This document shows positions 4,846 to 5,140 of a stretch of 64,000 bases of DNA, one piece after another; the first letter of the stretch is position 1; each line of letters starts with the position of its first letter. The notes under the pieces are model-generated. The model was not told where the DNA came from. It made no database searches and worked only from the letters and a program-made list of their open reading frames with translations. The DNA comes from Myxococcales bacterium (lineage in GTDB: Bacteria; Myxococcota_A; UBA9042; JABWCM01), in contig JABWCM010000005.1 in NCBI GenBank assembly GCA_013360285.1, positions 2,149-66,148 of the forward strand, read 5' to 3'. The translations under genes and the position numbers were made by a program.

Positions 4846-4922
4846 TGCGGGGTGGAGCAGCCAGGTAGCTCGTCGGGCTCATAACCCGAAGGTCGTAGGT
4901 TCAAATCCTGCCCCCGCGACCA
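4846..4922 (+). tRNA. Initiator tRNA-fMet (anticodon CAT)
   Basis: 77-nt cloverleaf ending in CCA, with the anticodon loop CTCATAA. The 3-GC anticodon stem and overall sequence nearly match E. coli initiator tRNA (..GCGGGGTGGAGCAGCCAGGTAGCTCGTCGGGCTCATAACCCGAAGG..TTCAAATCC..CCCCGCGACCA). Confidence 0.9.
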
Positions 4923-4928
4923 AATAAA

Positions 4929-4963
4929 CGGCTCTGAGACACAACTCAGGGCCGTTTTTTTTT
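4929..4963 (+). terminator. Rho-independent terminator after the tRNA
   Basis: GGCTCTGAG-ACACAACT-CTCAGGGCC hairpin followed by T9. Confidence 0.7.
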
Positions 4964-4994
4964 GTTGTGAGAAAGTCTACGGACGCGGGGTGGC

Positions 4995-5140
4995 TGGTGT
5001 TTGTAGATGAATTCCAGGCCCGGGCGGCCTTTGGCTGTCTCGCCCGTAAAAATCCCTGCGCCATATTCCCGATATGATTCAGGATTTTTTCTGACGAGAT
5101 CGATCCTCGAATTCCAACGCTGGTCAGAAGTGTGTGTTAA
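4995..5140. repeat. Partial copy of a ~160-bp MITE-like element (second copy at 19116-19278)
   Basis: A ~110-bp core is shared with the 19.1-kb copy: GGTGTTTGTAGATGAA...GGCGGCCTTTGGCTGTCTCGCCCGTAAAAATCCCTGCGCCATATTCCCGATAT.ATTCAGGATTTTTTCTGACGA. It includes the AAAAATCCCTG...CAGGATTTTT stem. It sits immediately 3' of the tRNA-fMet terminator. Confidence 0.6.

Follow-up and report, generated by a model that had tools for sequence, protein, structure and literature searches.

A MITE-like palindromic repeat in an uncultured Myxococcota bacterium, with one copy behind an initiator-type tRNA gene

The repeated element downstream of the tRNA-Met gene described here belongs, with a probability of about 0.8, to a MITE family of approximately 160 bp that is non-coding, carries terminal inverted repeats of 16-19 nt and occupies intergenic positions in the genome of an uncultured Myxococcota bacterium. 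It was studied in a stretch of 64,000 nucleotides, hereafter called the window. An intact copy measures 160 bp, within the size of less than approximately 600 bp expected of a MITE, and has no coding capacity. Terminal inverted repeats, multiple dispersed copies and presence or absence at an orthologous site were likewise found. The initial annotation had described the sequence as a MITE-like repeat, which is borne out by the further copies, their inverted repeats and the lack of one copy in a syntenic relative. The family seems to be undescribed, as it is absent from Rfam and from all collections searched, while the kind of element is familiar.

Three copies, named A, B and C, were located in the window, and all three are intergenic:

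4989-5130, plus strand: copy A, with the left inverted repeat GGTGGCTGGTGTTTGTAG and the core, without the right inverted repeat (BLAST, alignment, nhmmer E 1.5e-36)
19117-19276, plus strand: copy B, the intact 160-bp element (inverted repeats, fold, nhmmer), absent from the orthologous spacer of the relative L008
19117-19135, plus strand: terminal inverted repeat at the left end of copy B, with CTA before it at 19114-19116 (inverted-repeat search)
19258-19276, minus strand: terminal inverted repeat at the right end of copy B, with CAG after it at 19277-19279 (inverted-repeat search)
22272-22390, minus strand: copy C, degenerate, with internal deletions and the left inverted repeat GGTGTATGGCGCTGTTAGATGAA kept (BLAST segments, alignment, nhmmer E 2.8e-6)

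The ends of copy B read GGTGTGTGGTGTTTTT-AG and, reverse-complemented, GGTGTGTGGTGTTTTTTAG. They agree over 16 perfect bases, followed by a 1-nt indel, to a total of 19, and besides these two ends no match to the inverted repeats was found in the window. The element had been proposed to recur at approximately 19116-19278 with perfect terminal inverted repeats; the recurrence stands, at 19117-19276, but the ends are near-perfect, differing by the 1-nt indel. Alignment of both copies supports the recurrence, with copy A (4989 to approximately 5130) matching positions 19117-19225 of copy B at approximately 82% over 109 nt (BLAST E 7e-26). In addition, the window contains exactly two occurrences of a 28-nt core pattern and likewise two of a 19-nt pattern, where approximately none would be expected. 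The palindrome in copy B is imperfect and spans the entire element, its 70-nt arms being 70% complementary, and copy B folds into a single long hairpin (z = -7.0 for the plus-strand RNA and z = -9.0 for the minus-strand DNA). Four nucleotides separate its end from the stop codon of a gene whose 969-aa product carries Tricorn/PD40/Omp85 domains, and the copy is at the same time upstream of a PEGA-domain gene and its promoter-like site. The divergent promoter region that precedes this 969-aa gene contains copy C. Copy B is probably an intact and fairly recent insertion; copies A and C, in which one or both ends are missing, are probably old and no longer mobile.

The insertion of copy B can be compared with an orthologous site in L008, a contig of a relative with 77% protein identity, which shares with the window the order of the Tricorn/PD40 gene, the PEGA gene, a Kelch-type gene and a TMEM260/TPR gene, with synteny continuing further on at tryptophan dioxygenase and acyl-CoA dehydrogenase. 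The spacer between the Tricorn/PD40 and PEGA genes comprises 182 bp in L008 versus 315 bp in the window. A single alignment gap coincides with copy B, opening right after the stop codon, and the alignment resumes at the PEGA gene's promoter region, which is conserved, the far flank in L008 being too diverged to place the junction to the base. Judged by this alignment, the syntenic spacer has no copy B, in a comparison between species that would also accommodate a loss in the relative. Directly after the stop codon at the junction (L008 3346-3365, aligned with window 19105-19116), L008 carries the 8-nt string CACCACAC, which resembles the inverted repeat and may be fortuitous, may be target-like or may be left over from a lost copy. 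A weak nhmmer match elsewhere in L008 (9465-9517, E 0.07) was inspected and contained no element.

Further copies, for which the initial annotation had suggested a search, do exist, with at least eight loci attributable to the organism of the window and at least four in a related MAG. The six-frame translations of copies A and B were joined into peptides and searched against a collection of 5.8 billion proteins, and a 46-aa minus-frame ORF of copy B served as query for a HMMER search of 1.84 billion cluster representatives. Three of the protein-search matches correspond to small ORFs of Logan contigs, and these contigs stem from the SRA runs in which the species of the window also occurs. Inspection by nhmmer and by direct reading yielded at least eight loci in approximately 90 kb, namely the three window copies and five on Logan contigs of the same samples:

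Copy D, on L011-L013: between a Wzz/GNVR kinase gene and dnaK
Copy E, on L014: upstream of efp
Copy F, on L015: a Logan contig
Copy G, on L014: the contig begins inside the copy
Copy H, on L014, approximately 1522-1647: between a Mg-chelatase-like gene and recA

The contigs of copies D-H come from the same four SRA runs as contigs identical to the window, and from this co-occurrence in samples we infer that they belong to the same genome. Contig breaks were repeatedly found inside the element: L009 stops 29 nt inside copy B, L010 starts at window position 5048 inside copy A, and the first 30 nt of L014 are identical to the right arm of copy B. Such breaks are the expected behaviour of a repeat in a de Bruijn graph, assuming k=31 for the assembler. 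The end of a second palindromic family, described below, closes L014 (5978-5999).

At least four copies, with translations 72-83% identical, are present in one related NCBI MAG ('Myxococcales bacterium', HUU55_ locus tags), where they were recognized within annotated proteins:

NUN14298 (P0122)
NUN14352 (P0123)
NUN13815 (P0124)
NUN15993 (P0125)

In three of these four proteins the element forms a spurious-looking N-terminal extension before lipoprotein-like or signal-like sequence. The fourth, NUN14298, is a 1034-aa 'fused MFS/spermidine synthase' that carries the element in frame at aa 281-333, between two blocks that match profiles. Read at the protein level, this copy is either a tolerated coding insertion, similar to a Rickettsia palindromic element, or the product of an annotation that fused two ORFs. 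The likeness to the Rickettsia elements consists in this in-frame copy; unlike them, the repeat offers a single case, at the protein level and with a possible annotation fusion, and nearly all of its other copies are intergenic. The inverted repeats are recognizable in copy E and, by back-translation, in NUN14298, whereas one or both ends are lost in copies A, C, D and F. Another protein returned by the representative search, P0129, proved to be an unrelated repeat protein.

The host is an uncultured and poorly sampled Myxococcota-like bacterium. Proteins of the window were found only on short Logan contigs (SRR8490538, SRR22392803, SRR25608322 and SRR22392800), the 969-aa protein has its closest relative at 77% identity (Logan SRR27317614) and the next at 42%, and its more distant named homologs bear labels of Deltaproteobacteria, Polyangiaceae or Nitrospirota. 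The core of the element was absent from 185,579 GTDB representative genomes in an exact pattern scan, and degenerate peptide patterns of its translation gave nothing that could be confirmed in viral contigs or in the GTDB representative genomes. Plasmids of PLSDB contained no match to the repeat, and a literature search for MITEs in Myxococcales returned nothing relevant. Three matches of the core pattern in JGI metagenome contigs were dismissed as chance, having no similarity in their flanks. An autonomous, transposase-encoding partner with matching ends (GGTGTGTGGTG-type inverted repeats) was found neither in the window nor among GTDB representatives, JGI metagenomes or plasmids.

In the alignment of the copies, …CAC(A/C)CC invariably forms the right terminus and GGTG the left one, and the sequences outside are unrelated. 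The well-preserved ends are flanked as follows:

Copy B, left end: CTA, then GGTG
Copies G and H: CACC, then TAG
Copy D: CACC, then TAC
Copy B, right end: CACC, then CAG

TA abuts four of the ten readable ends (p ~2e-4, given that TA makes up 3.2% of dinucleotides), and TAG abuts three of the ten (p ~1e-5). In three of the HUU55 proteins, read in the frame of the element, Ala-Arg stands just before it, which is compatible with GCT-AGG and hence GCTAGG. Both ends are intact in copy B only, and there the neighbouring dinucleotides are TA at the left and CA at the right; a clean target-site duplication is seen in no single copy. Elements of the IS5 type duplicate YTAR. IS630 itself duplicates TA within CTAG (PMC2577343, Table 1), which matches the CTA and TAG flanks of the repeat. 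On the basis of these flanks, we posit that they are most likely the signature of insertion into CTAG, either of the IS630 type, with duplication of TA, or of the IS5 type; the two readings are inseparable here because the target is palindromic.

We therein propose a mechanism in which a DDE transposase encoded elsewhere would bind the inverted repeats, of the form GGTGTGTGGTGTTTTT(T)AG, and move the element; both the enzyme and its family are deduced from the ends and flanks. Insertion would take place into palindromic CTAG, with duplication of TA in the style of IS630/Tc1-mariner or of CTAG in the style of IS5, and the empty site of copy B is predicted to read …GAGCTAGGTAGG…. MITEs of the IS630/Tc1-mariner type, such as RUP of Streptococcus pneumoniae, resemble the repeat in being non-coding elements of 100-200 bp with inverted repeats, many intergenic copies and TA at their ends. 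The likeness rests on size, ends and flanks, and the repeat differs from them in that its two-ended copy shows TA/CA instead of TA/TA and that its host is an uncultured member of the Myxococcota. IS5-derived MITEs have 4-bp duplications of YTAR (CTAG). If the element is read as GTGTGTGG…CCACACAC, this gives CTAG at the left end of copy B and at copies G and H, and CCAG and CTAC at the right end of copy B and at copy D, respectively. With a palindromic target the pattern equals that of the IS630 type, and no IS5-like partner was found.

The tRNA gene beside copy A is accompanied by signals on both sides:

4776-4804, plus strand: promoter-like site TTGACC-17-TACAGT upstream of the tRNA (9/12 consensus match only)
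4846-4922, plus strand: tRNA-Met (CAU), initiator-type, with A11:U24, G29-31:C39-41 and U1·G72 (ARAGORN, Rfam, alignment to E. coli)
4926-4967, plus strand: intrinsic-terminator-like hairpin (13 bp, 4926-4957) and T run, 3' of the tRNA (consensus match)

ARAGORN identified this tRNA-Met (CAT) on the plus strand as the sole tRNA in the window, and the Rfam tRNA model scores 61.7 bits at the same positions, the only Rfam match at gathering level in the 64 kb. Across all complete E. coli genomes, a matching tRNA-Met occurs at a median of four places per genome with 90-96% identity. Pairwise alignment to the tRNA-Met of the triple-tRNA locus between mltA and amiC of E. coli, which we take to be the initiator genes metZWV, shows 72 of 77 positions to be identical. 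The five differences comprise one in the D loop, two in the T stem, which amount to a compensated change from a C-G to an A-U pair, and one each at position 1 (C to U) and position 72 (A to G; window 4846 and 4918). Direct reading of the sequence shows A11:U24 and three consecutive G-C pairs, G29-31:C39-41, in the anticodon stem. A Watson-Crick pair is lacking at 1:72, where a U1·G72 wobble replaces the canonical C1×A72 mismatch. U1:G72 is on record for natural initiators of bacteria, with the speculation that such tRNAs might also serve in elongation (PMC6265465).

Because of the CAU anticodon, A11:U24, the three G-C pairs and the match to the initiator locus of E. coli, the gene is classified as initiator-type by its sequence, in a U1·G72 variant. 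The initiator tRNA of the initial annotation is thereby confirmed, with the variant at 1:72 added. Its own promoter and terminator, also claimed there, are both present, yet as consensus matches that are no commoner than in shuffled sequence, the counts of promoter-like and terminator-like sites lying within the shuffled range. We regard the tRNA-fMet gene as ordinary and as transcribed independently.

Copy A begins 67 nt past the 3' end of the tRNA and approximately 22 nt past the T run of the terminator. A repeat copy of approximately 145 bp is thus indeed present 3' of the tRNA, at 4989 to approximately 5130, though not within 30 bp of it as had been stated. On one side it is bordered by the terminator of the tRNA, on the other by the 3' end of a membrane-protein gene on the minus strand (ending at 5164), and its alignment to copy B breaks down after approximately 5130. 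The description of the repeat as structured applies to copy B with its one long hairpin, but not to copy A, which lacks the right inverted repeat and folds into no hairpin, its fold being no better than those of shuffled sequences (z = -0.4). Copy A is probably a decayed and immobile copy. A search for homologs of an 881-aa transglycosylase returned the same species only.

Neither a structured RNA nor a protein could be recognized in the element. Rfam gave no match to copy A or copy B at E<=1, its one weak hit being the tRNA terminator. In an RNAalifold analysis of five copies, the covariation term was unfavourable (+1.36). Three pairs with double changes were counted versus 1.4±1.0 in shuffles, a number that 64 of 500 shuffles reached and that is not significant, and in the same count 90.5% of the cells were paired versus 89.5%. 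In each reading frame a stop interrupts at least one of copies A and B, so no ORF is conserved, and an exact look-up of six element ORFs found none in the protein collection. The copies are truncated at differing points and their contexts are unrelated, one copy lying within an ORF. Hence neither the covariation nor the consistent context of a structured sRNA gene family was observed. Judged from these alignments, the palindrome is inherited and not maintained by detectable compensatory change. The alternative that the shared sequence is an sRNA gene with compensatory base changes, as named in the initial annotation, thus finds no Rfam match and no significant compensatory change, and the reading as a repeat is favoured.

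Apart from the preferred reading as a MITE, three further origins were weighed. As copy A is the first feature downstream of the tRNA-fMet gene, the sequence 3' of the tRNA could be regarded as the scar of a tRNA-targeted integrative element, that is, of an integrase-mediated island or a prophage, and the initial annotation had pointed to tRNA genes as hot spots of integration. The hot-spot reading applies to integrase-mediated islands. Copy A starts beyond the tRNA's own terminator and has no sequence in common with the 3' end of the tRNA, no duplicated 3' segment of the tRNA was noticed beside the element on reading by eye, and the region up to the next gene spans only approximately 240 bp, with no integrase gene inside. 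None of the other copies has a tRNA nearby, as tRNA genes were detected neither on any other copy-bearing contig nor near copies B or C in the window, and for this reason the hot-spot idea is unsupported. A scar of this kind appears hardly credible, and the adjacency of copy A and the tRNA is incidental; most simply, the element survives in non-essential spacers. The hairpin that spans all 160 nt, together with the lack of a perfect target-site duplication in the one two-ended copy, would be in keeping with a REP/REPIN-like palindrome moved by a RAYT transposase (IS200/IS605-type, single-strand) or by another duplication-free mechanism instead of a DDE enzyme. The terminal 20-25 nt, however, are not themselves short palindromes, conservation peaks sub-centrally and not in two terminal REP units as would be required of a member, and the CTA and TAG flanks are in line with insertion into CTAG by cut and paste. 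Among the part of the window ORFs that was screened, no RAYT gene was noted, and we consider this origin very unlikely.

Selection by the host is the remaining alternative, in which the repeat would persist by function, either as a hairpin in the RNA at the 3' end of messages, acting as terminator, RNase barrier or stabilizer, or as a protein-binding site; a MITE origin would be compatible with it. Of five copies that were folded, four give the more stable structure on the strand complementary to the plus orientation of copy B, namely B (-84.6 vs -68.2 kcal/mol), E (-59.8 vs -45.6 kcal/mol), F (-56.7 vs -47.8 kcal/mol) and D (-52.6 vs -49.0 kcal/mol), and the order is reversed in A (-40.7 vs -45.1 kcal/mol). 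This better-folding strand corresponds to the mRNA sense in all copies 3' of a gene, that is B, D, F, G, H and, next to its minus-strand gene, A. Moreover, the sub-central block GCCGCCTCGCCCG.AAAAAT is 88% conserved, compared to 62-64% in the arms (alignment columns 46-70; copies A, B, D, E and F), and it is the best-conserved part even in copies without inverted repeats. This speaks against the MITE reading, since it would not be expected from simple neutral decay. On the other hand, the covariation is not significant, and the folding difference stems from 66 versus 62 pairs and not from an excess of G·U pairs (5 vs 3), which makes it weak evidence. The orientation was counted at few loci (5-6), three of which were found with a query in the reading frame of that very strand, and the strand asymmetry is inherited from a common ancestor, so that the copies are not independent evidence. 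Other copies are situated upstream of genes in either orientation or, in one case, inside an ORF, and the hairpin is not followed by a T run. Host selection of this kind seems unlikely to us. Block conservation and shared orientation may reflect constraint after insertion, and they are leads only, owing to the few loci, the strand-specific query that found three of them and their shared ancestry. That the repeat is a host-retained, orientation-biased palindromic module at mRNA 3' ends, with a constrained sub-central block and in-frame read-through, co-opted as an RNA- or protein-binding element, is in our view rather unlikely. MITEs of the ERIC/IRU and Correia types, from Enterobacteria and Neisseria, are similar in kind, being imperfect palindromes over their whole length of 100-160 bp that are intergenic and transcribed, often follow stop codons and form long RNA hairpins. 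Their reported effects on flanking transcripts depend on orientation, and the hairpin of the present repeat might act on neighbouring transcripts as well. The sequences are unrelated, and the orientation bias of the repeat was counted at only 5-6 loci.

Several other repeats were noted in the window. A second palindromic family is represented at 1116-1268 by 153 bp with inverted repeats of 23-30 nt (AGAGGGTGTTTGGGAAAAAAATAA…), flanked by TAA on both sides if its ends are read as GAGGGTG…CACCCTC. The motif GGTGTTT is common to the ends of this family and of the first. The contigs L001 and L002 begin inside this copy (window 1226 and 1242), and since the same end also occurs on L014, the second family is probably multi-copy. 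At 23398-23681, at least five copies of the short palindrome TCTTTCCCAAATGGGAAAG(G) stand in direct and inverted orientation inside a mechanically called 363-aa ORF (22854-23945, plus strand); this cluster may be an operator or binding-site array. Ten tandem 18-nt repeats, GGTTTGGCTTCTTCGGTY, at 26860-27107 overlap the mechanical ORFs 26587-27246 (minus strand) and 26816-27487 (plus strand) and, if coding, would represent a repetitive low-complexity protein segment. Between 33260 and 60021, the minus strand contains very large ORFs of 1471, 2404, 1418, 1023, 914 and 1146 aa that abound in internally repeated units rich in cysteine codons, with paralogous blocks approximately 12.6 kb apart at approximately 70% DNA identity. 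Within 37.8-60.0 kb, some stretches are similar, at 23-46% identity, to P0123, a lamin-tail/Cys-repeat protein of the HUU55 MAG.

The repeat has no bearing on tRNA biology or on integration at tRNA genes. For the genomes of this lineage it matters in other ways. Together with the second palindromic family, it breaks the short-read contigs of this organism, and in four proteins of the HUU55 MAG repeats were read into gene calls as false N-terminal extensions or in-frame segments. Recognizing these repeats would therefore improve MAG annotation in this lineage, and the element can serve as a marker for strain-level typing by presence and absence. Were the co-opted reading true, it would provide an RNA- or protein-binding element in an almost unsampled lineage of Myxococcota. 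If a partner transposase were found, an active CTAG-targeting transposon would be documented in the Myxococcota.
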